Shown here: in pieces, positions 6,242-31,254 of the stretch
How positions within the stretch are numbered: the stretch's first letter is position 1
How the letters are laid out: each line of letters opens with the position of its first letter
Source of the DNA: a virus
Strand: one strand, 5' to 3'
DNA length: 64,000 nucleotides
Virus record (IMG/VR): IMGVR_UViG_3300042882_001046
Span: 54,269 to 118,268 of that record
Program-made: the position numbers and the translations under genes
Notes under the pieces: model-generated
Database searches by the model: none
The model's input: only the letters and a program-made list of their open reading frames with translations
What the model was told of the DNA's origin: nothing

Positions 6242-6664
6242 GGGGATGAAATGGTATCGATTGGCATTGTTGGGGATAAGTGGCACGTAGTCAGAATTCA
6301 TCTATGACTTTAATCTATGGTGAAGACAATTAGCTGGCAATACTTTTGCTAAGATGGCGACTTTAGGTTTAACTAGAGAAGCTTCTGTTGTAGCTGCCTA
6401 AGAGGTAGTCACAACCGTTACTCCAACCAAGTTGGTGTAACCTCGGGTCGATTAGGACGTTAACCTAGGAACAGAAGTCCAATATACGGGTCACAGGTCA
6501 GAGCTCGTTTAAAATAATTCTGAGACCAGGTTGTTTGTAAGTTTGGTTCCCACATACATCAAACTTAATATTTCGGAACGTTGAGAAACAACGTTGTACT
6601 AAACGTGTAGTCATTTATTGTCAAAGTGAGCAAGACGCGGGTTCGACTCCCGCCATCTCCACCA
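6242..6664 (+). ncRNA. ssrA: tmRNA
   Basis: Acceptor GGGGATG/CATCTCC with G3:U70, discriminator A and encoded CCA; T-arm GCGGG-TTCGACT-CCCGC; tag ORF 6336-6401 GNTFAKMATLGLTREASVVAA* after UAGCU resume context. Confidence 0.93.
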
Positions 6665-17915: not shown

Positions 17916-18031
17916 GTTTTTTTGTTTTTTGTTTGTTATGTATTTTATTAACTTATGAACCATAAATATATGAAGAATTATCTTATGTGTCAATTATTTT
18001 AAAAGTTTTTTTTTGTTAAAATTTTGTTATG

Positions 18032-18117
18032 CGGAGAGTGTTGGGCTCGAACCAACGCGGCTGTTACACCCTACCTGTTTAGCAAACAGGCCCCTTCACC
18101 AACTTGGGTAACCCTCC
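18032..18117 (-). tRNA. trnS: tRNA-Ser(GCT)
   Basis: Cloverleaf; anticodon arm CCTGT-TTGCTAA-ACAGG; long variable arm. Confidence 0.93.
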
Positions 18118-18456
18118 TTATTGTAATAATTGTATTAAATAATAAGATAATTTATATCCTGTAAACGCACCAAGAGCTGATGGTAATGGGAAAACAATCA
18201 TTTTACCTAAATCTGTAACGTATTTTGGTCTGTTAACAATCTTACCCATATAAAAGTAATATGTTAAGTACCCTAATAACACCGCTAAATCCGTTCTTGT
18301 TGCAATGAATACAACAATAGTCGCACCAATAAAACCAAAAGTAAAATTATCTCTAACTCCTTCCCAAATTTCAAATGTGGTAGCCTCTTTGTACTCTTTA
18401 ACAATTTTTTTAAACTTTGTTCTGTTTGTCTGTTTTTTTTTAATTTGTGATTCCAT
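18118..18456 (-). CDS. Membrane protein inside the tRNA array
   Basis: 112-aa ORF with hydrophobic helices filling the gap between two tRNAs. Confidence 0.65.
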   Translation of the reverse strand: MESQIKKKQTNRTKFKKIVKEYKEATTFEIWEGVRDNFTFGFIGATIVVFIATRTDLAVLLGYLTYYFYMGKIVNRPKYVTDLGKMIVFPLPSALGAFTGYKLSYYLIQLLQ

Positions 18457-18457
18457 G

Positions 18458-18531
18458 TTGGAATAGATGGATTCGAACCATCGACATCTACCGTATCAGG
18501 ATAGCGCTCTAACCAACTGAGCTATATTCCA
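18458..18531 (-). tRNA. trnI: tRNA-Ile(GAT)
   Basis: Cloverleaf; CTATC-CTGATAC-GGTAG. Confidence 0.92.
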
Positions 18532-18536
18532 ATGTG

Positions 18537-18706
18537 CTGTAAGGGAAGGAGTCGAACCTTCAAGAGGAGATTCAATTGATAACACAACGCTTGCAAGCTG
18601 GTGGTCTACCCCATATTATCAATCTATTTCTTTGTCCCCGCCCCCGAGACAGGAGGGTGCGTATGCCAAGGTCATAACTGAGACAACCTAATTTCGCCAC
18701 CTTACA
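18537..18706 (-). ncRNA. Oversized (170 nt) tRNA-like RNA with insertions in D-loop and variable arm
   Basis: Perfect acceptor TGTAAGG/CCTTACA, T-arm GAAGG-TTCGACT-CCTTC, Leu-like D-arm GCG...CGC. Confidence 0.75.
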
Positions 18707-18711
18707 ATTTG

Positions 18712-18798
18712 CGGAGGAACAGGGATTCGAACCCCAGATACCCTTTCGAGTATGCCAGTTTTCAAGACTGGTGCAATCAACCGCTCTGCCATTCCTCC
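18712..18798 (-). tRNA. trnS: tRNA-Ser(TGA)
   Basis: Cloverleaf; CCAGT-CTTGAAA-ACTGG; long variable arm. Confidence 0.93.
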
Positions 18799-18802
18799 AA
18801 AT

Positions 18803-18902
18803 AAAAGTGTTTTGGTCAACCACTCGCTACCCACCGCAGTATGACGATTCCCCCTGTGGTCATCGTACTTACGCCTAAGCCTTGTCCGTTGTAAACACTT
18901 TT
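18803..18902 (-). ncRNA. Structured inter-tRNA element
   Basis: 10-bp closing stem AAAAGTGTTT/AAACACTTTT. Confidence 0.45.
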
Positions 18903-18903
18903 G

Positions 18904-18977
18904 GGTGACTAACGGGAATCGAACCCGTGACAACTTGAACCACAATCAAGCGCTCTACCTACTGAGCTATAGACACC
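18904..18977 (-). tRNA. trnH: tRNA-His(GTG)
   Basis: G-1:C73; CTTGA-TTGTGGT-TCAAG. Confidence 0.9.
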
Positions 18978-18982
18978 ATATG

Positions 18983-19052
18983 TTGCGTGTATGAGGTTCG
19001 AACTCACTTGACCTTCCTTATGAGAGAAAGTTCTTTCCCACTAAGCCACGCA
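18983..19052 (-). tRNA. trnM: Atypical tRNA (CAT), probably elongator Met
   Basis: CTCATAA loop and normal T-arm; 6-bp acceptor and shortened acceptor/D junction. Confidence 0.6.
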
Positions 19053-19058
19053 GTTTAG

Positions 19059-19130
19059 TGGTTTTATTAGGACTCGAACCCAAACTCCGAAATCCGTAGT
19101 TTCGTGTGCTATCCATTACACCATAAAACC
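19059..19130 (-). tRNA. trnR: tRNA-Arg(ACG)
   Basis: CGAAA-CTACGGA-TTTCG. Confidence 0.92.
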
Positions 19131-19134
19131 GTTG

Positions 19135-19205
19135 TTGTCCCTCAGGGATTCGAACCCCAACTGGATGGACCAAAACCACCTGTACTACCGTTATACTAAA
19201 GGACA
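19135..19205 (-). tRNA. trnQ: tRNA-Gln(TTG)
   Basis: GGTGG-TTTTGGT-CCATC. Confidence 0.92.
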
Positions 19206-19213
19206 CTTTAGTG

Positions 19214-19293
19214 TGGGAGTGGAGGGATTCGAACCCCCAATGTCGACGACCACAGATTTACAGTCTGCTAAGCAACCGTTGCTCAACACTCCC
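19214..19293 (-). tRNA. trnY: tRNA-Tyr(GTA)
   Basis: GCAGA-CTGTAAA-TCTGT; long variable arm. Confidence 0.92.
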
Positions 19294-19296
19294 AAG

Positions 19297-19477
19297 TTAG
19301 GAAAGGAGAAGATGGTCGAGTGGACATCTCCTTTTACGATTGGCATTACTCAGGTGTATTTCTCCCAACTCCGATGATACCGACCAAAATACACTCTCAT
19401 GTCATAGGTACCACCATTCCCCAATCAACCTATAAAACGATAATAGAATGTCCCAGCCGTCTCCTTCTCTTATCTAA
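19297..19477 (-). ncRNA. 181-nt structured RNA with probable pseudoknot, family unknown
   Basis: 5'/3' purine-pyrimidine closing helix, GGACAT/ATGTCC, ATAGGT/ACCTAT, GTGTATTT/AAATACAC, loop GATTGG complementary to distal CCAATC. Confidence 0.6.
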
Positions 19478-19526
19478 CATACACTAACAGCTAAATACGG
19501 CTTGACTGATTATACTGTATGTTTTG

Positions 19527-19600
19527 CACGGGTGGAGAGGTTCGAACTCCCGACAACTGGTTTTGGAGACCAGTACTCTACCAAACTGAGCTACACCCGC
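19527..19600 (-). tRNA. trnW: tRNA-Trp(CCA)
   Basis: CTGGT-CTCCAAA-ACCAG. Confidence 0.93.
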
Positions 19601-19605
19601 TTATA

Positions 19606-19848
19606 TTACCTATACTTCCTGATAATCTTCATTATCTCTCCGATATCTGTAAGTTCCATCTTTTGTCCGACACGGATTGGATAGAATGCCACGGTAAATC
19701 CGTGGTTTCCACAAAAACGTTCGGTTACTCTTTTTCCATTAACTTTTTCAAGATAAATCCATGGAATGTTACCTGCGAATTCACATTTGATTCCCAGTTT
19801 GTCCATTCTTCTTCTGAAATCGTTTAATACTCTTGTGTCTGTTTCCAT
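19606..19848 (-). CDS. Hypothetical protein inside the tRNA array
   Basis: 80-aa ORF between trnC and trnW. Confidence 0.65.
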   Translation of the reverse strand: METDTRVLNDFRRRMDKLGIKCEFAGNIPWIYLEKVNGKRVTERFCGNHGFTVAFYPIRVGQKMELTDIGEIMKIIRKYR

Positions 19849-19862
19849 AAGTTTATTTTTTG

Positions 19863-19934
19863 AGGTCGAACCCAGAATCGAACTGGGGTAATTAGTTTTG
19901 CAGACTAACGCCTAAGCCGCTCGGCCACCCGACC
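19863..19934 (-). tRNA. trnC: tRNA-Cys(GCA)
   Basis: TTAGT-CTGCAAA-ACTAA; U73. Confidence 0.93.
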
Positions 19935-19940
19935 ATTGTT

Positions 19941-20174
19941 TTATTTAACCATATCAAAGTTAATCATATTCTCTGACATTAATTCACGAAGTTCATTTCT
20001 TATTTCCTGATATGCGTCATACTTGTCCTGTGGTAAATCATCGGAAGCATATTTAGTTTTCGCTCTCAATGATTGGTCCAAATCCCAAAGTATTGACCAC
20101 ATCTTCATTCCTTTAGTTGCCAAGTCGAAATCTTGTTGGTCCTCAGGTAAATTAAATTCTAAAACAGCTTTCAT
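19941..20174 (-). CDS. Hypothetical phage protein
   Basis: MKAVLEFNLPEDQQDF...; ATG 20174 preferred to track start. Confidence 0.65.
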   Translation of the reverse strand: MKAVLEFNLPEDQQDFDLATKGMKMWSILWDLDQSLRAKTKYASDDLPQDKYDAYQEIRNELRELMSENMINFDMVK

Positions 20175-20352
20175 TTTTTTTCTCTTTATATTTTTTACAT
20201 CTCTTTTTTGGTACTTCAACGTAATATGAACCCATAAACGATGAGAATACACCAACGTAGTTGGACCCAACCTCTTTTACATCATGGAGCACTGAACCCT
20301 CAAAAAGGTTGAAGAAGATGTCAGTACAGTCTTTTTTTGTTACAACTTTCAT
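20152..20352 (-). CDS. Hypothetical protein
   Basis: TATATTTG (20357-20364) 4 nt before ATG 20352. Confidence 0.6.
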   Translation of the reverse strand: MKVVTKKDCTDIFFNLFEGSVLHDVKEVGSNYVGVFSSFMGSYYVEVPKKRCKKYKEKKNESCFRI

Positions 20353-20390
20353 ATTACAAATATACACAATTTTATTTAATTTTTCTAATG

Positions 20391-20464
20391 TGACCCCGCC
20401 GAGATTCGAACTCGGGACTCCTTCATTAAAAGTGAAGTGCTCTAGCCAACTGAGCTACGAAGTC
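20391..20464 (-). tRNA. trnK: tRNA-Lys(TTT)
   Basis: CTTCA-CTTTTAA-TGAAG. Confidence 0.93.
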
Positions 20465-20470
20465 TTATTG

Positions 20471-20543
20471 TGGTAACGGTCAGAATCGAACTGACGACAC
20501 CTTGGTCTTCAGCCAAGTGCTCTACCAACTGAGCTACATCACC
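20471..20543 (-). tRNA. trnF: tRNA-Phe(GAA)
   Basis: CTTGG-CTGAAGA-CCAAG. Confidence 0.93.
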
Positions 20544-20548
20544 ATTTG

Positions 20549-20621
20549 TAGTCCCTGTAGGAATCGAACCTACGACATCTTGCATGTAAAACAAGCGCTC
20601 TCCCAACTGAGCTAAAGGACT
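20549..20621 (-). tRNA. trnV: tRNA-Val(TAC)
   Basis: CTTGT-TTTACAT-GCAAG. Confidence 0.92.
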
Positions 20622-20626
20622 GTTTG

Positions 20627-20700
20627 TACTCCGTACGGGGCTCGAACCCGTAATCTTCACCGTGAAAGGGTGACGACTTAACCAATTTGTCCAACGGAGC
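20627..20700 (-). tRNA. trnE: tRNA-Glu(TTC)
   Basis: TCACC-CTTTCAC-GGTGA. Confidence 0.93.
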
Positions 20701-20754
20701 AATTATTCAACAAAAATACGACCAATAAATCAAAGAACCAAAAAACATCAAAAT

Positions 20755-20787
20755 AAAAAACCCCGAACCTTTTTACGAGTTCGGGGT
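20755..20787 (-). terminator. Attenuator-type terminator upstream of tRNA array A
   Basis: ACCCCGAAC-N10-GTTCGGGGT followed by T-run; 5' arm complementary to AGTTCGG in leader ORF. Confidence 0.85.
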
Positions 20788-20820
20788 ATATAAAAAATTT
20801 AGTTTATTAATCTAAAAAAA

Positions 20821-20919
20821 TTATCCTATTTTGACATCCGAACTACATAATAGCATACGCTCATACCAACAAATCGATTGTTGTGTACTAAAGACCATAT
20901 GTTTAAATGTAGTTTTCAT
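20821..20919 (-). CDS. Leader peptide A (32 aa) MKTTFKHMVFSTQQSICWYERMLLCSSDVKIG
   Basis: Read by hand; sits between a consensus promoter and a terminator; codon content mirrors downstream tRNAs. Confidence 0.85.
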   Translation of the reverse strand: MKTTFKHMVFSTQQSICWYERMLLCSSDVKIG

Positions 20920-20937
20920 TGTTTCTTATATATAGTA

Positions 20938-20968
20938 CAAAGATACAAAAAAATCTTTGGGTGTCAAA
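20938..20968 (-). promoter_or_regulatory. Bacteroidota primary-sigma promoter for leader A
   Basis: TTTG(20968-20965)-N19-TATCTTTG(20945-20938). Confidence 0.8.
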
Positions 20969-20993
20969 TATTTTTTTTAACTATTTATAAAAG

Positions 20994-21413
20994 ATGAAAA
21001 CATTGAGACAAATCATTAAGGAAGAATTATTACTTGAAAAAAGAATCACTCAAGTTAATTCGTCTTTAGAAGTAGTATTCCTATTTGACGTAAACAGGAC
21101 CACTCACGCCTTTGATAGAGACACAAGAGATGATATTGAAGGGTATAATGTAAGACCGATTGTTAACGCTGAAATTAGAGAGATTATCAGTACAGTAAAA
21201 AAAGATATTGCCGAAAAAATAGTTTCAAGGGAAATTAACCCTGAAGTAGATTTTGTTGTAAAGTCCTTAAAATGGGAATTAGCCATGGCAATAACTCCTG
21301 TTCATATTGGAGGAACTTATTGGCAATTAATTATCAAAACAGTATTCAGAGAATCCAAATACAACCCTTTTAGAGTGGGTGAAAACCAATTGGTGATTTA
21401 CTCAGACATTTAA
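20994..21413 (+). CDS. Hypothetical, probable virion protein
   Basis: TATTTATA 4 nt before ATG; N-terminal IIKEELLLE. Confidence 0.65.
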   Translation: MKTLRQIIKEELLLEKRITQVNSSLEVVFLFDVNRTTHAFDRDTRDDIEGYNVRPIVNAEIREIISTVKKDIAEKIVSREINPEVDFVVKSLKWELAMAITPVHIGGTYWQLIIKTVFRESKYNPFRVGENQLVIYSDI

Positions 21414-21504
21414 AAAAAAAAAGGGTAACACTAGTATCTGAATCGTTCCCGTGTTACCCAGTTTGTAATTGAGCTTGTGTATCTAAATCGTGCTCCTCAA
21501 TCAC
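21412..21504 (-). ncRNA. Two-hairpin small RNA with duplicated loop motif ACGATTYAGATAC
   Basis: TATCTTTG (21509-21516); stems GTGATTGAG/CTCAATTAC and GGGTAACAC/GTGTTACCC; 11-nt U tail. Confidence 0.75.
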
Positions 21505-21543
21505 AATACAAAGATACAAAAATATTTCGTACCACAAAAAATA

Positions 21544-22254
21544 TTATCCCTGAATATTAAAATTAATCACACATCTGTGAGTTTTTCCGTAAAAAGGTTT
21601 AACCGAATGAACAATATCGTAAGGCCAAATTATTAACATCCCTTTCTTTGGTCTAATAAAGTAAGACATTCCCCTAACGTGAAATGTAAATACCCCACTA
21701 TATGGATGGTCATCAACTGGGTCTCCGTCAGATAGATAATAACCACCAGAAAAGTTTAAAGTTGTTTCTTCATTTGGTTGCCATCTACAATGATTATGAG
21801 CGTTATGTCCACGACCTTCAGTTGGATTATAATATTGCATCCAACTCTCAGTAATCATTGGTTTTCTGTTGTGTTCAAATCCAAGTTTGTCCAGCATCTC
21901 CATATAACCCAATTCTACCCTTTTTTTAATTTTCTTAACACATTCCTCATCTATATTAAGAAAATCGTTTGGCGGGGTCCAAAATCGACTACCAATGGGG
22001 TTATGTTCCGTTGGTTCCACCCACATGTCTTGCCTATTGTAGTTTACTTGATATGTAGATTGTCTTTGTTCGTCGTATTGTTCTGGTAACTCTTGACCCA
22101 TCAATTTTTGTTGGTCGGTTAGAGCATTAAAACCAAAATTATAAACTTCGTCTTGAAGTTCGTCATCTGTGAATACTTTCATAAACACAGGAATAGGTGC
22201 AAGATGAAAAAGATTCTCCTGACTTGTTTTAACTAATGGATTTTTTACGTACAT
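21544..22254 (-). CDS. Putative 2OG-Fe(II) oxygenase
   Basis: HNAHNH, SGGYYL, IWPYDIVHSVKP, RCVINFN. Confidence 0.7.
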   Translation of the reverse strand: MYVKNPLVKTSQENLFHLAPIPVFMKVFTDDELQDEVYNFGFNALTDQQKLMGQELPEQYDEQRQSTYQVNYNRQDMWVEPTEHNPIGSRFWTPPNDFLNIDEECVKKIKKRVELGYMEMLDKLGFEHNRKPMITESWMQYYNPTEGRGHNAHNHCRWQPNEETTLNFSGGYYLSDGDPVDDHPYSGVFTFHVRGMSYFIRPKKGMLIIWPYDIVHSVKPFYGKTHRCVINFNIQG

Positions 22255-22267
22255 AATTTAAATCTTG

Positions 22268-22348
22268 TACCCCAAGAGAGACTCGAACTCTCACGACCGA
22301 AGTCATTGGTTCCTAAGACCAACGCGGCTACCGTTACGCCATCGGGGT
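22268..22348 (-). tRNA. trnL: tRNA-Leu(TAG)
   Basis: TTGGT-CTTAGGA-ACCAA; variable arm. Confidence 0.92.
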
Positions 22349-22351
22349 GTG

Positions 22352-22443
22352 TCATTATCGCTTCAGCCACATCGGGAAAGGCGCCTCTCCCGCGTTGTTT
22401 AAGTGTGTAACTTGCGCCGTATCTCACTGAGGTACGATAATGA
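22352..22443 (-). ncRNA. Structured inter-tRNA element
   Basis: 9-bp closing stem TCATTATCG/CGATAATGA; inner hairpin CGGGAGAG-GCGC-CTTTCCCG. Confidence 0.5.
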
Positions 22444-22446
22444 TTG

Positions 22447-22520
<74 letters not shown>

Positions 22521-22524
22521 ATTG

Positions 22525-22610
22525 TACCGAGGGAGGGACTCGAACCCTCACGGCCGTTTACTGACCAAGGGATTTTAAGTCCCTCGTGGCTACCATTACA
22601 CCACCTCGGC
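22525..22610 (-). tRNA. trnL: tRNA-Leu(TAA)
   Basis: AGGGA-CTTAAAA-TCCCT; own promoter TATATTTG at 22620-22627. Confidence 0.93.
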
Positions 22611-22648
22611 ATTGTCTTACAAATATAACCTTTATGGAATCATAAATC

Positions 22649-22683
22649 AAAAAAAACCCCAAACTTTTTTTTTAGTTTGGGGT
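22649..22683 (-). terminator. Intrinsic terminator
   Basis: CCCCAAACT/AGTTTGGGG followed by T8. Confidence 0.75.
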
Positions 22684-22709
22684 CCTATTATATAAAGTTA
22701 TTACCTTTT

Positions 22710-23441
22710 TTATTGAGCATCAAACTCTTCTTCCCATAACGTATCAGAAGAATTTTCTTCTGTATTATAAGTGTGATTTAATTCAATTGTCATGTCATTG
22801 AAATTAAATACGAACTCTCCGTCTGACCCTTCATTAATTTCCCAACCACCATAATGACTTTCAAGTTGATTATAACACCAATCTTCAATTGTTGACGGAA
22901 CTGAATCACCATTTTCTTCAAATGAACTTTCAATATAACCAGAATCCCCCGAACCATTATATCTTAGAGTTAATATTCCATCTTGTGGAATTTCTAAATC
23001 AGATAGAACCCCATCTTTTTCCCATTCTTCAAAAATTTCTTGACCTTCTTCTTCTGACCATTCAGTCCCACTAGCGTCTCCTCTATCATACCAAGACCAA
23101 TAATGGTTAAATGAAATGTCTTTGTTTGCAGAATTAATACTAATCTCAAACTTTTGCCATGACATCGCATCAATATCTGGTGTCTCACTACTATATAATT
23201 CTTGGTCAGACGCATACTTCGTAATTTTTTGAAGTATCGGTATCAACCCTGACGGAACGTCCGCTCTCCAGTTATTGGAGAAATGTGTCATTTGATTCCA
23301 ATCTATATTATTATAGTTAAGTGTATCACCATAATCATCCATCTCGAATTCAAACTCACCGACTTCCATTCCGAGAGAGCTCAAATAATTACAAACTCTT
23401 CTCAGGTATTGTTTTTCTTCTGTTGTTAAAAGTTTTTCCAT
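22710..23441 (-). CDS. Acidic protein with DUF6878-like C-terminal region
   Basis: YNGSGDSGYIE and GGWEINEGSDGEF motifs (family name from memory). Confidence 0.55.
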   Translation of the reverse strand: MEKLLTTEEKQYLRRVCNYLSSLGMEVGEFEFEMDDYGDTLNYNNIDWNQMTHFSNNWRADVPSGLIPILQKITKYASDQELYSSETPDIDAMSWQKFEISINSANKDISFNHYWSWYDRGDASGTEWSEEEGQEIFEEWEKDGVLSDLEIPQDGILTLRYNGSGDSGYIESSFEENGDSVPSTIEDWCYNQLESHYGGWEINEGSDGEFVFNFNDMTIELNHTYNTEENSSDTLWEEEFDAQ

Positions 23442-23452
23442 ATAAATAAATA

Positions 23453-23806
23453 TCAGTCTTCAAACTCTAATTTCATTGTTTTTAACATCCATTGGGGTCT
23501 TTGATTTGACGAGATGTTACTAATCCACTCTTTGGCTGAAGGTATGTAATTATTACAATCTTCTTTTACGTGTTGTTCTCCAACATATCGGGTATAAACT
23601 GTTTTTCCGTCTGAGTTTAAGAACTCAGTTCCAAATCTTTTTTCCATTTCAAAAATTCCTTCACTATGATGTCTAAACATTCTATGAAGAGAATCTCCAA
23701 ACCAAGATTTGGTTTCATCTAACCATTCATGTAAATGAATGTAATCCTCAGGTTTTCCTCCAAACTTTTTGGCGGATGATTTTGCATGTAAATTTGGATG
23801 TGCCAT
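23453..23806 (-). CDS. DUF6915-like His-rich protein
   Basis: MAHPNLHAKSSAKKFGG...HRMFRHHSEGIF...HVKEDC (family name from memory). Confidence 0.65.
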   Translation of the reverse strand: MAHPNLHAKSSAKKFGGKPEDYIHLHEWLDETKSWFGDSLHRMFRHHSEGIFEMEKRFGTEFLNSDGKTVYTRYVGEQHVKEDCNNYIPSAKEWISNISSNQRPQWMLKTMKLEFED

Positions 23807-23808
23807 GA

Positions 23809-24042
23809 TTATTTAATTTGTGAGTTGTTTCTTCTTGCTTCCTCAGCTTCTTTGTAAACCCTAACCCATGTTAAAAATACATCAATAGGTGCTAAAATCC
23901 AACACATAATAATTAACGCCATACTCTCAAGACCTGGAGATATTCCAAGACCACCTGACATAACATCTCTGTTCCATTTTCTAATTGACATGATTACGCA
24001 GTAAATGAAACAAACAACGTAATACGACCAAAATAATTGCAT
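23809..24042 (-). CDS. Small membrane protein
   Basis: Two hydrophobic helices; ATG 24042 (track start overlaps trnA). Confidence 0.6.
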   Translation of the reverse strand: MQLFWSYYVVCFIYCVIMSIRKWNRDVMSGGLGISPGLESMALIIMCWILAPIDVFLTWVRVYKEAEEARRNNSQIK

Positions 24043-24057
24043 AAATAAAAGTTTTAG

Positions 24058-24130
24058 TGGAGAATGAGGGAATCGAACCCACGACAACTTGAATGCAAAT
24101 CAAGCGCTCTACCAACTGAGCTAATTCCCC
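24058..24130 (-). tRNA. trnA: tRNA-Ala(TGC)
   Basis: G3:U70; CTTGA-TTTGCAT-TCAAG. Confidence 0.93.
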
Positions 24131-24136
24131 TGTTTG

Positions 24137-24209
24137 AGCCTCCTGTCGGAATCGAACCAACGACCTACTGATTACAAATCAGTTGCTCTACCTGCTGAGC
24201 TAAGGAGGC
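24137..24209 (-). tRNA. trnT: tRNA-Thr(TGT)
   Basis: ACTGA-TTTGTAA-TCAGT. Confidence 0.93.
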
Positions 24210-24259
24210 ATTTGTGGGTGTATGCTCATCACATACTCATGGGTTCCCACAACCCGTTG

Positions 24260-24332
24260 AGCGGAAGACCAGGCTCGAACTGGCCACCCCCGACTTGGAA
24301 GGACGGTGCTCTACCAAATGAGCTACTTCCGC
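24260..24332 (-). tRNA. trnG: tRNA-Gly(TCC)
   Basis: CCGTC-CTTCCAA-GTCGG (one T-T mismatch); U73. Confidence 0.9.
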
Positions 24333-24337
24333 AATTT

Positions 24338-24413
24338 TGGCGGTCCCGACGGGATTCGAACCCGTATCTCGCACCGTGACAGGGTGGAATTGTAACCATT
24401 CAACCACGGGACC
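24338..24413 (-). tRNA. trnD: tRNA-Asp(GTC)
   Basis: CTGTCAC loop; the only tRNA here with encoded CCA. Confidence 0.92.
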
Positions 24414-24441
24414 GTGTGTGGGGAGTTTCACCCCAAACTTT

Positions 24442-24933
24442 TTAATTTGTTAAGATGTGTTGATGTTCTCCGATTACTCGTTTTAAACTACTAACATATC
24501 TCTTATCAGACGCATATACCCTTCCGAGTAGTGCAAGATACTGATTTTTTGTCAAATCGTCTTTACCTTTTAACATATAATCTTGCCATAAAAAGTAATC
24601 ATATACGCTAAGGTTCCAATCTGTATATTTTGAGTATCCGCTCTGAGTTTTACCAACTGAAGACGTTTCTCTTTTTGTTGGAACTCTCATTCCAAACAGA
24701 TTGTTTGCCGTTTTGAACAATTTTGATGTAAATGCTCCTGACTCTAACACAGCTTGTGCAAACACAATATCAGGAAATTTTATACCAAACTTAATTATCT
24801 GCTCGTACAATTCTTCTTTTGTCAACCTATCATCTTGTGTCTGATAAGTTGTTTGTACTTGCTTCTCTTGTGCTTTTGTTGTCATTGTTCCTAACAATAA
24901 CAACACAGTCAATAAGAATGTTTTTAACTTCAT
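24442..24933 (-). CDS. Glucosaminidase-domain (GH73-like) peptidoglycan hydrolase with signal peptide
   Basis: AQAVLESG, NNLFGM, YASDKRY motifs. Confidence 0.8.
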   Translation of the reverse strand: MKLKTFLLTVLLLLGTMTTKAQEKQVQTTYQTQDDRLTKEELYEQIIKFGIKFPDIVFAQAVLESGAFTSKLFKTANNLFGMRVPTKRETSSVGKTQSGYSKYTDWNLSVYDYFLWQDYMLKGKDDLTKNQYLALLGRVYASDKRYVSSLKRVIGEHQHILTN

Positions 24934-25013
24934 TTCTTTCTTTTTGTCTGTTTATGCTTCAGGATTACTCCATCCACGATACCACAACATTGGAAATTTT
25001 CCACCCACCTCAG

Positions 25014-25085
25014 CTGCTCCACCTGGGCTCGAACCAGGATAAAAGGATTAACAGTCCTCCGTAATAACCATTATACGATAGAGCA
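25014..25085 (-). tRNA. trnN: tRNA-Asn(GTT)
   Basis: GAGGA-CTGTTAA-TCCTT. Confidence 0.92.
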
Positions 25086-25122
25086 AAATTATAATCAAAT
25101 TTTCCAACAAAGGAAACTTTTG

Positions 25123-25196
25123 TCGGGATGGCTGGATTCGAACCAACGGCCTCCACGTCCCAAACGTGGCGCGATACCTGACTACGCTACATCCCG
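25123..25196 (-). tRNA. trnP: tRNA-Pro(TGG)
   Basis: CCACG-TTTGGGA-CGTGG. Confidence 0.93.
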
Positions 25197-25201
25197 TACA
25201 T

Positions 25202-25232
25202 AAAAAAACCCTGAAGTATTAGTTCAGGGTTT
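25202..25232 (-). terminator. Attenuator-type terminator 5 nt upstream of trnP
   Basis: AAACCCTGAA-N7-TTCAGGGTTT-TTTT; 5' arm and loop complementary to AGTTCAG in leader ORF. Confidence 0.88.
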
Positions 25233-25254
25233 AGATAATTGGCTATAATATTGT

Positions 25255-25353
25255 TTACCAACCACTCGCTTCTGAACTTACGCAAATAGTGCCCGCATCC
25301 CCATTAGGAGTTGTCGGTGTGTCTAAATTCGTATTTGTGTTCATAGTTTTCAT
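25255..25353 (-). CDS. Leader peptide B (32 aa) MKTMNTNTNLDTPTTPNGDAGTICVSSEASGW
   Basis: Read by hand; TATTTATT at 25367-25374; codon content mirrors downstream tRNAs. Confidence 0.85.
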   Translation of the reverse strand: MKTMNTNTNLDTPTTPNGDAGTICVSSEASGW

Positions 25354-25398
25354 AGTGCAATATTACAATAAATATATTTAAAAACCAAAAAATAAATA

Positions 25399-26181
25399 TT
25401 AGTTACTAAAACCTCTCAAATAAACATCATTTGTCATATTGAAATTAATCCTCATTGATGAGTTTGGATAAGTACTATAAACTCTATATTGACCCTGTGG
25501 AATTACATTCCCTGTATAATTAATCAAGTATGATGACAACTGAGTATTTGTGTTCAACACTGTTTGACTATTGTTAGCACTTGACACTATTCTTGTACCG
25601 TTTTTCGCATAATAACCAATTCTAGTTTGTCTTTTTGTATCATTATTCATTGCCGAGACAGGAATCAAAACTAAAACCCAAGCGTTATCATTAACAGTAT
25701 TTTTAGATATTTTTACTGTTGTAAAATTATATGCCATTTTAGGGTTACCGTGTTCATCAACTCCACCACTTACTTGTGGTATGTCAGCCTGAATAACTTG
25801 TGGTAACACACCATTAGTCCAAAATGGCATGTTTAAATAATTGTTTAAATCTCGGTAATTGGTATTTTGAATACTCACCATTGTCCAACAAGAGTAAAAT
25901 GGAACGCTTGTAGATTGTGGGTTTCTTGGAACTGAGTTTTTAAGGTAATTAACAATTAATGTTGTTTTAGCTTGCTTTTCAATAAAAACATACGCCTTCA
26001 AATTAGGTGTTGAACTTGTCGTAACCCTTAAATTAGGGTTCGTACTTGAAGTTGAGTTAAGTTCTTGGGATTGCTCAATTTTAGTTTTTTCGAAGTCTAC
26101 TCCAGTGATGTCTTCTTTAGAACAAGACACAACAAATACCGATAAGGTAAGGAATGATAATAATAATTGTTTGATTTTCAT
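25399..26181 (-). CDS. Hypothetical lipoprotein
   Basis: Lipobox VVSC followed by SKED. Confidence 0.7.
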   Translation of the reverse strand: MKIKQLLLSFLTLSVFVVSCSKEDITGVDFEKTKIEQSQELNSTSSTNPNLRVTTSSTPNLKAYVFIEKQAKTTLIVNYLKNSVPRNPQSTSVPFYSCWTMVSIQNTNYRDLNNYLNMPFWTNGVLPQVIQADIPQVSGGVDEHGNPKMAYNFTTVKISKNTVNDNAWVLVLIPVSAMNNDTKRQTRIGYYAKNGTRIVSSANNSQTVLNTNTQLSSYLINYTGNVIPQGQYRVYSTYPNSSMRINFNMTNDVYLRGFSN

Positions 26182-26191
26182 GATTGTTTGT

Positions 26192-26473
26192 TTAAATGTA
26201 TTTTTTAAAAATTGTTTCTAAGGTGTCTTCATCTTCCCTACTTATAACATGAAATTTTTGAGATAACTTATCCATTTTCTCTAAAAATTCATCTTCTAAA
26301 ATAGATGTTTTTGGTTTACCATTTTTATCAGTTTGTATTTGAGACAACACTGATTTAGGTAAATGGTTTTCTTCAACTAACCCTTCAATTAATTCTTTAA
26401 TTTCTCTTGGGTCACAGGCCGTAACAAATTCATACGGGTCAATGTCGATTTCTTCTACACAAAATTCAGGCAT
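26192..26473 (-). CDS. Hypothetical protein
   Basis: 93-aa ORF in operon-like spacing. Confidence 0.65.
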   Translation of the reverse strand: MPEFCVEEIDIDPYEFVTACDPREIKELIEGLVEENHLPKSVLSQIQTDKNGKPKTSILEDEFLEKMDKLSQKFHVISREDEDTLETIFKKYI

Positions 26474-26498
26474 AATTATTTTTTTTTTAATAGTTTAG

Positions 26499-26572
26499 TG
26501 GACCAGCCTGGGCTCGAACCAGGGACCTTCACATTATGAGTGTGTTGCTCTAACCAACTGAGCTACAAGTCC
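26499..26572 (-). tRNA. trnI: tRNA(CAT), probably Ile2 (lysidine type)
   Basis: CTCATAA loop; Ile-like acceptor and D-arm; own promoter TATCTTTG at 26582-26589. Confidence 0.8.
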
Positions 26573-27992: not shown

Positions 27993-29660
27993 ATGAGGGT
28001 ATTAGGGTTTTCAGTAGGCCACGATAAAGGAGCGGTTATTATTGAAGATGGGAAAGTTATTGTGGGTATAACACAAGAAAGAATTTCTCGTGTTAAACAT
28101 GATGGAGCACATCAAGGAGGACTTATACCTTTTGAGTCAATAAATTATTGTCTAAACTCAATTGGTATTACTTATAAAGAAATTGACCTTTTTGTTTATA
28201 GTACAACGGAGCTTGAGGATAAAACAGCTGCGGATTTTTTCAGAAAATATAATGACATTAGTTACGATAGATTATTTTTTATACCTCACCATTTAGCACA
28301 CGCTTATTCAACATTCTTTAGTTCAGGATTTGATGACGCTGCGGTTATTGTTGCCGACGCGTCAGGTAGTATATTAAACTTCAAAAATAAATTACATTTA
28401 TGGTATGAAGTTGACCGTACGGGATTGAACCCTGATGAAGATTGGACAGAAGGAATTTCAATATATCATTTTAAGAAAAATGAATATAATGAAGTTTATA
28501 AAAAATGGATAAAATATCCTGTACCTATTGATACTAATGAAGGTGTGTCGGTTGGTACCGTATATTCACAAGGTTCTTTACAGTTAATCTATGAACCAAA
28601 TGAACATACTTGGCCTGCAGGTAAATTAATGGGACTGGCATCTTATGCGGATGATGAAATTGTAAAAGAAGCCCCTGAATATGTTCAAGATTTAGGTGAT
28701 GATATCTATATTCCCAATAACGCAATATACCCAAAAGTTACTTGGGGGTCTGATTTCTTTTCAAGAGCATGTGTTGCGGGAATATATCAAAGAGAACAAG
28801 AAAGAGCATCCTTAATTTTAGCAAAAATCGCAAAAGATAAAACAGGTTCAGAAAATGTATGTGTTGCGGGTGGTTCTTTTTTGAATTGTAATTCTAATGA
28901 AAGAATTTTAAATTCAGGTTTATATGAAAATTGTTATTTCATTCCGCCAAGCGATGATAGTGGAATTCCATTAGGTTGTGCTTGGTTTGCATATCAAAAA
29001 TTAACCGATATTTCGGAAGTAGAACAATTAAGCCCTTATCTTGGTAAATCATACAGTAAAAACGATGTTGTTGAAGCACTTAACGAGTATCCAGGTTTAA
29101 AGTATACTGAATACGATAATTTTGATTTACTAATCAATGAAATTAGTTATTGGTTAACACAAAATAGAGTTATTGGGTGGTTTCAAGGAGGTTCGGAGAT
29201 TGGTCCAAGAGCGTTAGGTAATCGTTCTATATTGGCATCTCCAATTAAGTCATGGATGACTGGTCATATAAACTCAGACATAAAGAAAAGAGAGTGGTAT
29301 AGACCTTTTGCACCTGCAGTATTATTTGAGCATCAATCAGAAGTTTTTGAATCTGATGTATATTCACCTTACATGTTGTTGACAACAACAGTTAAAGAAG
29401 ATTGGATAAATAAAATACCAGCCGTAGTTCATATTGATAATTCTGCAAGACATCAATCGGTTACCGAAAAAAATAACCCTAAATTCTATTCTTTGATTAA
29501 AAAATTCTACGAAAAAACTAATGTTCCTGTTTTATTGAACACAAGTTTTAACGGACCAAAAGAACCTATTGTAGAAACACCTAAAGAAGCAATTAATACA
29601 TTCTTAGAAAACAATTTAGACTACTTGGTCATCAATAATTTTATTATCTCCAAAAATTAA
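27993..29660 (+). CDS. Carbamoyltransferase (CmcH/NodU/TobZ family) 1
   Basis: HD, HHLAHA, DASG, GKLMGLA, EIGPRALGNRSIL, RPFAP, NTSFN. Confidence 0.92.
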   Translation: MRVLGFSVGHDKGAVIIEDGKVIVGITQERISRVKHDGAHQGGLIPFESINYCLNSIGITYKEIDLFVYSTTELEDKTAADFFRKYNDISYDRLFFIPHHLAHAYSTFFSSGFDDAAVIVADASGSILNFKNKLHLWYEVDRTGLNPDEDWTEGISIYHFKKNEYNEVYKKWIKYPVPIDTNEGVSVGTVYSQGSLQLIYEPNEHTWPAGKLMGLASYADDEIVKEAPEYVQDLGDDIYIPNNAIYPKVTWGSDFFSRACVAGIYQREQERASLILAKIAKDKTGSENVCVAGGSFLNCNSNERILNSGLYENCYFIPPSDDSGIPLGCAWFAYQKLTDISEVEQLSPYLGKSYSKNDVVEALNEYPGLKYTEYDNFDLLINEISYWLTQNRVIGWFQGGSEIGPRALGNRSILASPIKSWMTGHINSDIKKREWYRPFAPAVLFEHQSEVFESDVYSPYMLLTTTVKEDWINKIPAVVHIDNSARHQSVTEKNNPKFYSLIKKFYEKTNVPVLLNTSFNGPKEPIVETPKEAINTFLENNLDYLVINNFIISKN

Positions 29661-29661
29661 T

Positions 29662-31254
29662 ATGAGTTCAATTTATTCTTTTTTTGCGGGTTCACATAGT
29701 GCAACATCATCATTAATCATTGATGGTGAAATAAAATATGTTATTGAGGAAGAGAGATTAAGTAGAATCAAAGCAGGAGATAAATACGAATCATTTCCAA
29801 ATTTATCGTCATCCAAAATTGTTGAATTATCTGGTTTACAAATAAAAGATGCGGACTATAGAATAATGGTAGAGCCAGTACCTGATTTGTATGCAGATGA
29901 ACTTACAAATGGTAAATATGAAAGAGTTAGTCACCACGACTCACATTGTTACGGTTCATATTTTACAAGTGGAATGGACGGAAAAGTTATGACAATATCC
30001 TATGATGGTGGAGGTGATAAGTCAGTTATGAAAATTTACCTATGTGAAAATGGTAAAATGACATTACTTAAAAGTTTGGATTATTCAACCTTTGGAAGTT
30101 TATCACATCTTTGGGGATTTTCTACTACAGGTATTTTAGGGGTTGGTGAGAACGGTGCATCAATTTGGAAAATTTGTAAAGATGAAGGTAAATTAATGGG
30201 TATGGCGGCGGACGGATATTACGATGAAAACATTATTAATATGTTAAAGTCCGTTATAAAATATAAAGATTTAAAATTTAGTCCATCAACAACAGGAGAA
30301 AGAACTAAATTTTTAATGGACTCATTACGATTACAAGGTGCCTTTGATACCAAAGAACAACGAGAAGTTTTTTCATATAATTTACAACATTATACAAACA
30401 AAATGTTTGTTGAGTTTTTAACTGACCTAAACAAACTTTACCCTGAGTATAGAAAATTTGCGTTCTCGGGTGGACTTTTTGCAAACGTAAAGTTGAACCA
30501 AAAGATAAATGAATTAGATTTTGTTGATGAGATTTTTGTTTATCCCCCAATGGGTGATGAAGGACTTCCATTAGGTGCCTGTATTAAAAAAGCTGTGGAG
30601 TTGGGTGAAATAACAAAACCAATTAAGTTAAAAAATGTGTTTTTTGGTATTGAATACACAAATGAAGAAGTGGACAACATATCAAAAGATTATGACTTCA
30701 ATAAGTCACTATATGTACCTGAAGAAATTGCATCAGACATCGATAATGGTGGTATTATAGGATGGTTTCAGGATAGATTTGAACATGGTCCAAGAGCATT
30801 AGGCGCACGAAGTATATTGGTTAAACCAACCGAAATTGGTACGCACCGAGTTCTAAATGAAAGACTTAAGAGGTATGAAATAATGCCATTTGCACCAATT
30901 GTAATGGAAGAATATTTTGACGAAATTTTTTATCCTTCCAAATCAAAATACTCTTCTGAATTTATGACAATTTGTTATTCCACAAGAGAATCTTGGATAA
31001 ACAAAATTCCCGCAGTTATTCAAAAATCCGATAAAACGGCAAGACCTCAGATTGTTGTAAAAAATAAAAACAAAAAGTTTTGGGAAATATTAAACGCGTA
31101 TTATAAAATTTCAGGAATCCCTGTTTTATTGAATACGTCATTTAATTCTCACAACGAACCAATTATAGATTCTCCACAACAAGCGTTTGATACGTTAAAA
31201 AAAGGAATCATAGATAAATTAATTATAGGAGATTATGTTTATTATCGTAAATAA
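29662..31254 (+). CDS. Carbamoyltransferase (CmcH/NodU/TobZ family) 2
   Basis: EERLSR, HHDSH, DGGG, EGKLMGMA, EHGPRALGARSIL, NTSFN. Confidence 0.92.
   Translation: MSSIYSFFAGSHSATSSLIIDGEIKYVIEEERLSRIKAGDKYESFPNLSSSKIVELSGLQIKDADYRIMVEPVPDLYADELTNGKYERVSHHDSHCYGSYFTSGMDGKVMTISYDGGGDKSVMKIYLCENGKMTLLKSLDYSTFGSLSHLWGFSTTGILGVGENGASIWKICKDEGKLMGMAADGYYDENIINMLKSVIKYKDLKFSPSTTGERTKFLMDSLRLQGAFDTKEQREVFSYNLQHYTNKMFVEFLTDLNKLYPEYRKFAFSGGLFANVKLNQKINELDFVDEIFVYPPMGDEGLPLGACIKKAVELGEITKPIKLKNVFFGIEYTNEEVDNISKDYDFNKSLYVPEEIASDIDNGGIIGWFQDRFEHGPRALGARSILVKPTEIGTHRVLNERLKRYEIMPFAPIVMEEYFDEIFYPSKSKYSSEFMTICYSTRESWINKIPAVIQKSDKTARPQIVVKNKNKKFWEILNAYYKISGIPVLLNTSFNSHNEPIIDSPQQAFDTLKKGIIDKLIIGDYVYYRK

Follow-up and report, generated by a model that had tools for sequence, protein, structure and literature searches.

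The tRNA Array and Its Trp-Tyr Spacer

The 64,000-nt stretch of DNA analyzed here (the window) comes from a 118-kb IMG/VR virus record whose completeness is estimated at 39% and whose G+C content is about 32%; the carrier is an uncultured lake-water giant phage. The window holds one tmRNA gene and 23 tRNA genes, the latter all encoded on the minus strand in the interval 18031-26572. Reading 5' to 3' on that strand, tRNA-Trp is followed by a 232-nt spacer and then by tRNA-Tyr (Table 1). Neither a promoter-like nor a terminator-like site was found on the minus strand of this spacer, in which a first-pass annotation had placed a pseudoknotted RNA of 181 nt (19297-19477). Sequences below are given in the RNA (minus-strand) sense.

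Several other features of the window lie around or outside the array. A strong terminator-like hairpin (10 bp, six of them GC, with a U-run) at 20760-20787 (-), just upstream of the tRNA-Glu-Val-Phe-Lys block, suggests that the array is divided into several transcription units. The 81-nt gap between tRNA-Arg(ACG) and tRNA-His (18977-19057, -) scores 24.7 bits with the Rfam tRNA model (threshold 29), contains the anticodon-loop-like CUCAUAA and is also found in relatives; the probable explanation is an atypical or degenerating tRNA(CAU) overlooked by ARAGORN. The phage-encoded tmRNA (6242-6664, +; 98.6 bits) carries the tag GNTFAKMATLGLTREASVVAA, and in two relatives described below (L164 and L183) a tmRNA gene lies within about 1 kb of the RNA element that is the subject of this report. 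Two neighboring paralogous genes for Nol-like carbamoyltransferases (PHROG 1601, E = 5e-106 and 2e-81) occupy 27993-31254 (+).

A Conserved RNA Element and Its Family

Thermodynamic folding of the 181-nt and 232-nt sequences gave no signal on either strand, with z between -0.08 and -0.9 relative to dinucleotide shuffles. Because the folding energy is no better than chance, the decision on whether the spacer encodes a structured RNA rests on comparison with relatives. Two small ORFs beside the tRNAs retrieved the first of these, 68 IMG/VR phage loci; nhmmer with the spacer then found only its 3' 140 nt (19294-19433) to be conserved, ending one base before tRNA-Tyr. In most relatives the element fills the entire gap between tRNA-Trp and tRNA-Tyr, which measures 128-147 nt. 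A structured RNA is thus present where it had been annotated, but its borders differ and so does most of its fold: the 181-nt unit amounts to the element of about 140 nt plus 44 nt (19434-19477) that form half of an independent 92-nt unit, module X.

The family is large. An exact-pattern scan with a 17-nt core word yielded at least 118 further phage loci, and the nhmmer total stands at 121 matches or more (at least 83 distinct), all on IMG/VR phage contigs and always on the tRNA-sense strand. A covariance model, R1, matches the window over its full model length exactly once (124.5 bits, E = 1.3e-28), and the window copy has all the invariant family columns. R1 also finds one copy per genome in each of five large carriers, four of which are at least 90% complete; overall, a genome carries one copy or two, and in some relatives two different copies stand in tandem. 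The location between tRNA-Trp and tRNA-Tyr is the predominant one among the relatives of the window. Since several members (L185, L172, L077 and L095) have no tRNA detected in the surrounding fetched DNA, the tRNA slot is usual and not obligatory; the neighbors of copies outside tRNA arrays (YceI-like, metallophosphoesterase and peptidase-like genes) include nothing recurrent or RNA-related. The most divergent full copy, L314 (G004:C1:107277-110371), comes from a 281-kb record classed by IMG/VR as proviral; it has AAUUGG/CCAAUU as its closing helix, lies far from any tRNA and runs opposite to the ORFs on either side.

Outside uncultured phages the family was not encountered. The core pattern searched in 185,579 cellular genomes gave chance matches only, among the 120 matches listed; cultured phage genomes (INPHARED) held no family match, and an exact 32-mer of the insert, sought in viral contigs, had none. 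Two checks proposed in the first-pass annotation were a comparison with Rfam and a covariance model built from related phages: the model found homologs, the aligned sequences covary, and the element is absent from Rfam 15. The spacer matched no Rfam 15 model, whether at gathering thresholds or with E relaxed to 10, and neither did the element of the window or of two other subtypes down to E = 10; the families covered include 6S, RNase P, SRP, tmRNA, riboswitches, small ribozymes, GOLLD, ROOL and YrlA. The likeness to 6S RNA noted there is one of size and is not supported. The family is large, uncatalogued and, in the searches described, phage-only; it is found mostly in the tRNA arrays of uncultured giant freshwater phages.

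A survey of the IMG/VR collection predicted 8,495 structured-RNA candidates, some of which overlap or adjoin tRNA predictions, e.g., DNAVirus_1423 with tRNA-Tyr (Fremin and Bhatt, 2023; PMC10690425). In the text of that survey, none of the candidates is described with the fold or context of this family.

Table 1. The element, its parts and its neighbors in the window, in the order of transcription (5' and 3' refer to the RNA)
Feature	Positions	Strand	Basis or remark
tRNA-Trp (CCA)	19526..19600	-	neighbor upstream of the element in the direction of transcription
Module X, two hairpins, about 92 nt	19434..19525	-	outside the family element
Structured RNA element, about 140 nt (core plus 5-nt 3' tail)	19294..19433	-	nhmmer and covariance-model matches, alignments
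S0 5' strand, AGG	19429..19431	-	pairs with CCU at 19299-19301
P1 5' strand, UGAUUGG	19421..19427	-	100% paired in 79 sequences
P2 5' strand, GGUGGUACC	19407..19415	-	98.8% paired, 4 pairs changed on both sides
P3 5' strand	19400..19403	-	short helix with a pseudoknot strand in its loop; 3 of 4 pairs changed on both sides
Pseudoknot strand b, GUGUAUUUU	19386..19394	-	in the P3 loop; 100% paired, 5 pairs changed on both sides
P3 3' strand	19382..19385	-	pairs with the P3 5' strand
P2 3' strand, GGUAUCAUC	19373..19381	-	pairs with 19407-19415
Pseudoknot strand b', GAAAUACAC	19354..19362	-	3' of P2
P1 3' strand, CCAAUCG	19337..19343	-	last-pair U.G/U-A alternation, compatible with the minus strand only
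3' hairpin, 5' arm, AAAGGAGA	19327..19334	-	covarying pair types
Hairpin loop, 17 nt, invariant GUCCAC and CCAUC	19310..19326	-	invariant columns in the alignment of 79 sequences
3' hairpin, 3' arm, UCUCCUUU	19302..19309	-	pairs with the 5' arm
S0 3' strand, CCU	19299..19301	-	pairs with AGG at 19429-19431
tRNA-Tyr (GUA)	19213..19293	-	neighbor downstream of the element

Fold of the Core

From 5' to 3', the family reads (A)AGG; U; UGAUUGG; an insert that varies from 12 to about 100 nt; AG(U/A)AAUG; CCAAUC(A/G); UA; AAAG-NNNN; the 17-nt loop (A/U)(U/C)GUCCAC-NNN-(A/C)CCAUCU; NNNN-CUUU; CCU; and a tail of 5-8 nt, after which a tRNA usually begins. The window carries the whole signature of membership: AGG-U-UGAUUGG, AAUGCCAAUC(A/G)UAAAAG, the hairpin loop GUCCAC..CCAUC and CUUUCC. 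As read from the aligned sequences, the core is a three-way junction that joins the AGG/CCU closing helix (S0), the helix P1 with its variable peripheral domain, and a hairpin of 7-8 bp with the 17-nt loop. Across 79 sequences, 97.4% of the cells of the three core helices are paired and six pairs have changed on both sides; none of 500 shuffles did as well, and slid controls pair at 61% or less.

The three helices contribute unequally to this evidence. Covariation is clearest in the hairpin stem, where one position is GC in 36 sequences, UA in 24, CG in 10 and AU in 8, and the next is AU in 63 and GC in 13. The sequence of P1 hardly varies, with one position exchanging UA for CG in four sequences and for AU in one. 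In S0 the GG/CC pairs are invariant and the third pair is AU in 71 sequences, GU in 5 and UA in 1; being nearly invariant, the closing helix cannot be proven by covariation, and the 5' AGGU has two alternative partners inside the hairpin loop, ACC or AUCU. An extension of the closing helix by 4-7 bp into the flanks can be drawn in 39 of 80 copies, a frequency close to what AU-rich flanks give by chance, and was dropped. Column-pair statistics for a tertiary partner of the loop point to the 5' A of AGG and the last U of CCAUCU, which change A>G and U>C in a single clade; this is not decisive.

The substitutions also bear on the reading strand and on coding. The G.U pairs would turn into A.C mismatches in the opposite strand and fit the tRNA-sense strand only. 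A coding sequence was likewise rejected: there is no credible ORF, and the substitutions in the helices are compensatory. The earlier description of a non-coding, evolutionarily maintained, pseudoknotted RNA is supported. The smallest members (L185, L183 and L145) measure 73 nt from AGG to CCU.

The Insert of the Window Subtype

In 44 copies, the window's among them, the variable insert folds as an H-type pseudoknot whose helices are P2, P3 and b-b'. P2 starts right after GGGGAAU and ends right before GGAGUU, and in these copies it keeps its position while taking many different helix sequences. The P3 loop contributes 7-9 nt to a helix with sequence lying 3' of P2, in variants such as UGGUAGU/ACUACCA, UGUUGGU/ACCAACA and GAUGAU/AUCAUC. 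P2 and b-b' cross in the order a, b, a', b', and both covary; b-b' is a true pseudoknot helix because it crosses P2 (19415-19407 with 19381-19373). In 19 gap-free sequences with the full structure of the window type, 97.8% of the pairs are formed and 16 have changed on both sides, which none of 500 shuffles equaled; slid controls pair at 54% or less.

The complementary words listed in the first-pass annotation are all present in the RNA sense, and relatives separate the pairings that evolution has kept from those it has not. Two of the listed pairings are right, GATTGG/CCAATC and GTGTATTT/AAATACAC. In RNA letters, GAUUGG (19426-19421) and CCAAUC (19343-19338) form a conserved, covarying helix, which is the nested P1 that closes the insert and not, as proposed, a pseudoknot. 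The second pair, GUGUAUUU (19394-19387) and AAAUACAC (19361-19354), taken for a plain hairpin, are paired in all 19 window-type sequences with five pairs changed on both sides, but as the pseudoknot helix. The pairing of the ends, AAGGAGA (19468-19462) with UCUCCUU (19311-19305), is unconserved; UCUCCUU pairs locally with the AAGGAGA at 19333-19327, in the 3' hairpin. GGACAU/AUGUCC is unconserved as well and, like the end pairing, would join the element to the stretch of module X at 19434-19477. AUAGGU/ACCUAU occurs only in the window and its near-twin L002 and is incompatible with P1 and P2.

Neighboring Modules

Module X is not conserved together with the element. A homolog precedes the element in L150. 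In L308 and L309 the module occurs by itself, flanked by tRNA-Glu and tRNA-Thr, and these solitary copies have AAAGAAA where the window has AAGGAGA. The second hairpin of module X shows compensatory changes among the homologs. In other relatives, two more recurrent and mutually unrelated spacer modules, "Y" and "Z," lie between a tRNA and the element (L056 5182-5262; L156; and L120, L137, L142, L143 and L158, 82-84 nt before their copies). With several recurrent spacer modules, the tRNA arrays thus hold several distinct small non-tRNA modules.

Evidence for Transcription and Proposed Release from the Array

Metatranscriptome contigs from four freshwater studies cover the element with 0-2 mismatches, with DNA carry-over possible and neither RNA ends nor strand given. 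Some of them link the element to tRNA-Tyr (19212-19367), others extend from it through module X and tRNA-Trp into the upstream ORF (19362-19829 and 19353-19686), and further family members are represented too. These contigs fit co-transcription of the element with the tRNAs, to the extent that carried-over DNA does not account for them.

The position of the element in its array is tight on both sides. Of 80 distinct copies, 47 have a tRNA beginning 5-8 nt after the core, and in about 38 the core is separated by 1-5 nt from a preceding tRNA. Since the element sits in a tRNA slot, processing of the flanking tRNAs would release it; this position supports the release that had been proposed from the window. 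The element would be transcribed together with the tRNAs of the array, the cut of RNase P at the 5' end of tRNA-Tyr would leave its 3' end, and its 5' side would be freed once the upstream RNA has its own 3' end processed.

Comparison with Known RNAs

Small stable non-tRNA RNAs have been known in phage tRNA clusters since T4, whose cluster encodes rnaC (species 1, 139 nt) and rnaD (species 2, 119 nt). Their function is, to our knowledge, still unexplained. The small stable RNAs of the T4 cluster are the closest known kind: like the family, they are non-tRNA genes of similar size within a phage tRNA cluster, on the tRNA strand and directly beside tRNA genes, and the tandem of two different copies found in some relatives recalls the tandem of rnaD and rnaC in T4. 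Placement is shared, whereas sequence and fold are not. The T4 RNAs have a tRNA-like T arm (GGGUUCGAAUCCC) or a CCA end, and the family has neither. Homology was rejected, as R1 run on the T4 tRNA region with filters off overlapped these genes with at best 3.1 bits (E = 8.7).

Ornate RNAs such as GOLLD (RF02032) and ROOL (RF03087) are also phage-borne, strongly structured and often located beside tRNA genes, and we know of no explanation of their function. They are, however, four to six times larger than the family and their Rfam models do not match it; what sets the family apart is its compact core, a three-way junction that takes as little as 73 nt. YrlA RNAs (RF02553), bacterial Y RNA-like RNAs, mimic tRNA and bind Ro60. 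YrlA resembles the element in being a small non-coding RNA of similar size, with a tRNA-like module of its own, but its sole weak match in the window (20 bits, against a gathering threshold of 69) falls on tRNA-Trp and not on the element. No Ro/TROVE or RtcB gene is present in five carrier genomes, of which four are 90% complete or more. With neither gene in the carriers and no YrlA match on the element, identity with Y RNA was rejected.

Possible Functions

The sequence at 19294-19433 is probably a real, conserved and expressed structured-RNA gene of a new family. Freedom to vary is concentrated in the peripheral domain, while junction and loop are invariant, a pattern that suggests a scaffold exposing a surface for recognition. 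The RNA would be stable and trans-acting, roughly tRNA-shaped, and would occupy a tRNA slot, with the invariant loop and junction as the putative docking surface for a protein. The comparison with tRNA is one of topology. The 3' strand of the hairpin continues unbroken into the closing helix, so the two helices (8 + 3 bp) can stack, while the 5' strand is interrupted by P1, the second arm; such a stack has the topology of the acceptor/T-arm stack of tRNA. A tRNA lacking CCA measures about 73 nt. This topology and the tRNA-sized minimal members make a tRNA-slot mimic the best guess. Features of tRNA itself are not seen: ARAGORN and the Rfam tRNA model find none in 19294-19433, there is no GUUC-type T loop, and no T-loop or D-loop consensus was found in the element.

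The partner would most likely be a host or phage tRNA-binding factor, held on the RNA as on a decoy or sponge. A decoy mechanism in which the tRNA-slot mimic binds a tRNA-directed protein is offered tentatively and with low confidence. Direct pairing of the invariant loop with the tRNAs or tmRNA of the window was considered and rejected: its best duplex has an energy of -20.5 kcal/mol, no better than those of shuffled loops (mean -19.5, sd 2.0).

Alternatively, the RNA might act in cis. It would then be a processing or folding element of the tRNA operon, functionless once excised: a structured spacer that readies the following tRNA's 5' leader for RNase P or keeps neighboring tRNAs from misfolding. 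The constant spacing before the downstream tRNA (47 of 80 copies at 5-8 nt), the abutting upstream tRNA and the co-linearity with tRNAs in the RNA-library contigs speak for such a role. Yet most tRNAs of the same arrays manage with spacers of 3-8 nt and without the element, a genome has just one copy or two, some members have no tRNA detected around them, and an invariant 17-nt loop together with an elaborate covarying pseudoknot exceeds what a spacer needs, all of which makes this explanation unlikely.

Two further alternatives give the RNA an activity of its own. Small ribozymes are common in phage DNA, and their commonness, the location of the element at RNA processing borders and its compact three-way junction with invariant junction and loop nucleotides would suit a new self-cleaving class that cuts the polycistronic tRNA precursor at its own border. 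This is very improbable, as no Rfam ribozyme model matches down to E = 10, no cleavage-site signature was found, and both borders are already accounted for by RNase P and the 3'-end enzymes. Least credible of all is that the RNA works as a transcription attenuator or riboswitch, its 3' hairpin controlling by regulated termination whether the downstream tRNAs are transcribed. The 3' strand of P1 does adjoin the 5' arm of the hairpin, and a U-run follows the hairpin in a few members (L145, L183, L053 and L034). Most copies, however, have no U-tract there, the window included (tail CCUAACUU), and a tRNA begins immediately afterward; a test for intrinsic terminators found no terminator-like site in the spacer, and the hairpin loop is 17 nt long. 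The would-be aptamer is moreover the most variable part, from 12 to about 100 nt, and a terminator would hardly retain an invariant 17-nt loop.

Significance for Phage Biology

The preferred reading, a trans-acting RNA presenting its invariant loop to a protein, can be set against what is known of phage tRNA genes, which are now understood as answers to tRNA-destroying host defenses. An RNA conserved in these operons could therefore plausibly take part in that conflict at the RNA level. That it serves as a phage counter-measure or take-over tool, its invariant loop capturing a tRNA-directed protein of the host, is a speculative and rather doubtful suggestion. Candidates for the captured protein would be an anticodon nuclease, another tRNA-targeting defense, or a tRNA-processing or tRNA-modifying enzyme. 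If true, the capture of such a protein would protect or re-route the phage's own tRNA supply.

The family is also an example of the abundant phage RNA families that current RNA catalogues miss. With it, the old question raised by the T4 cluster gains a defined subject: about 100 natural variants, a fold supported by covariation and a minimal core of 73 nt, in a family that is single-copy in giant lake phages and whose invariant loop is predicted to be a binding site.
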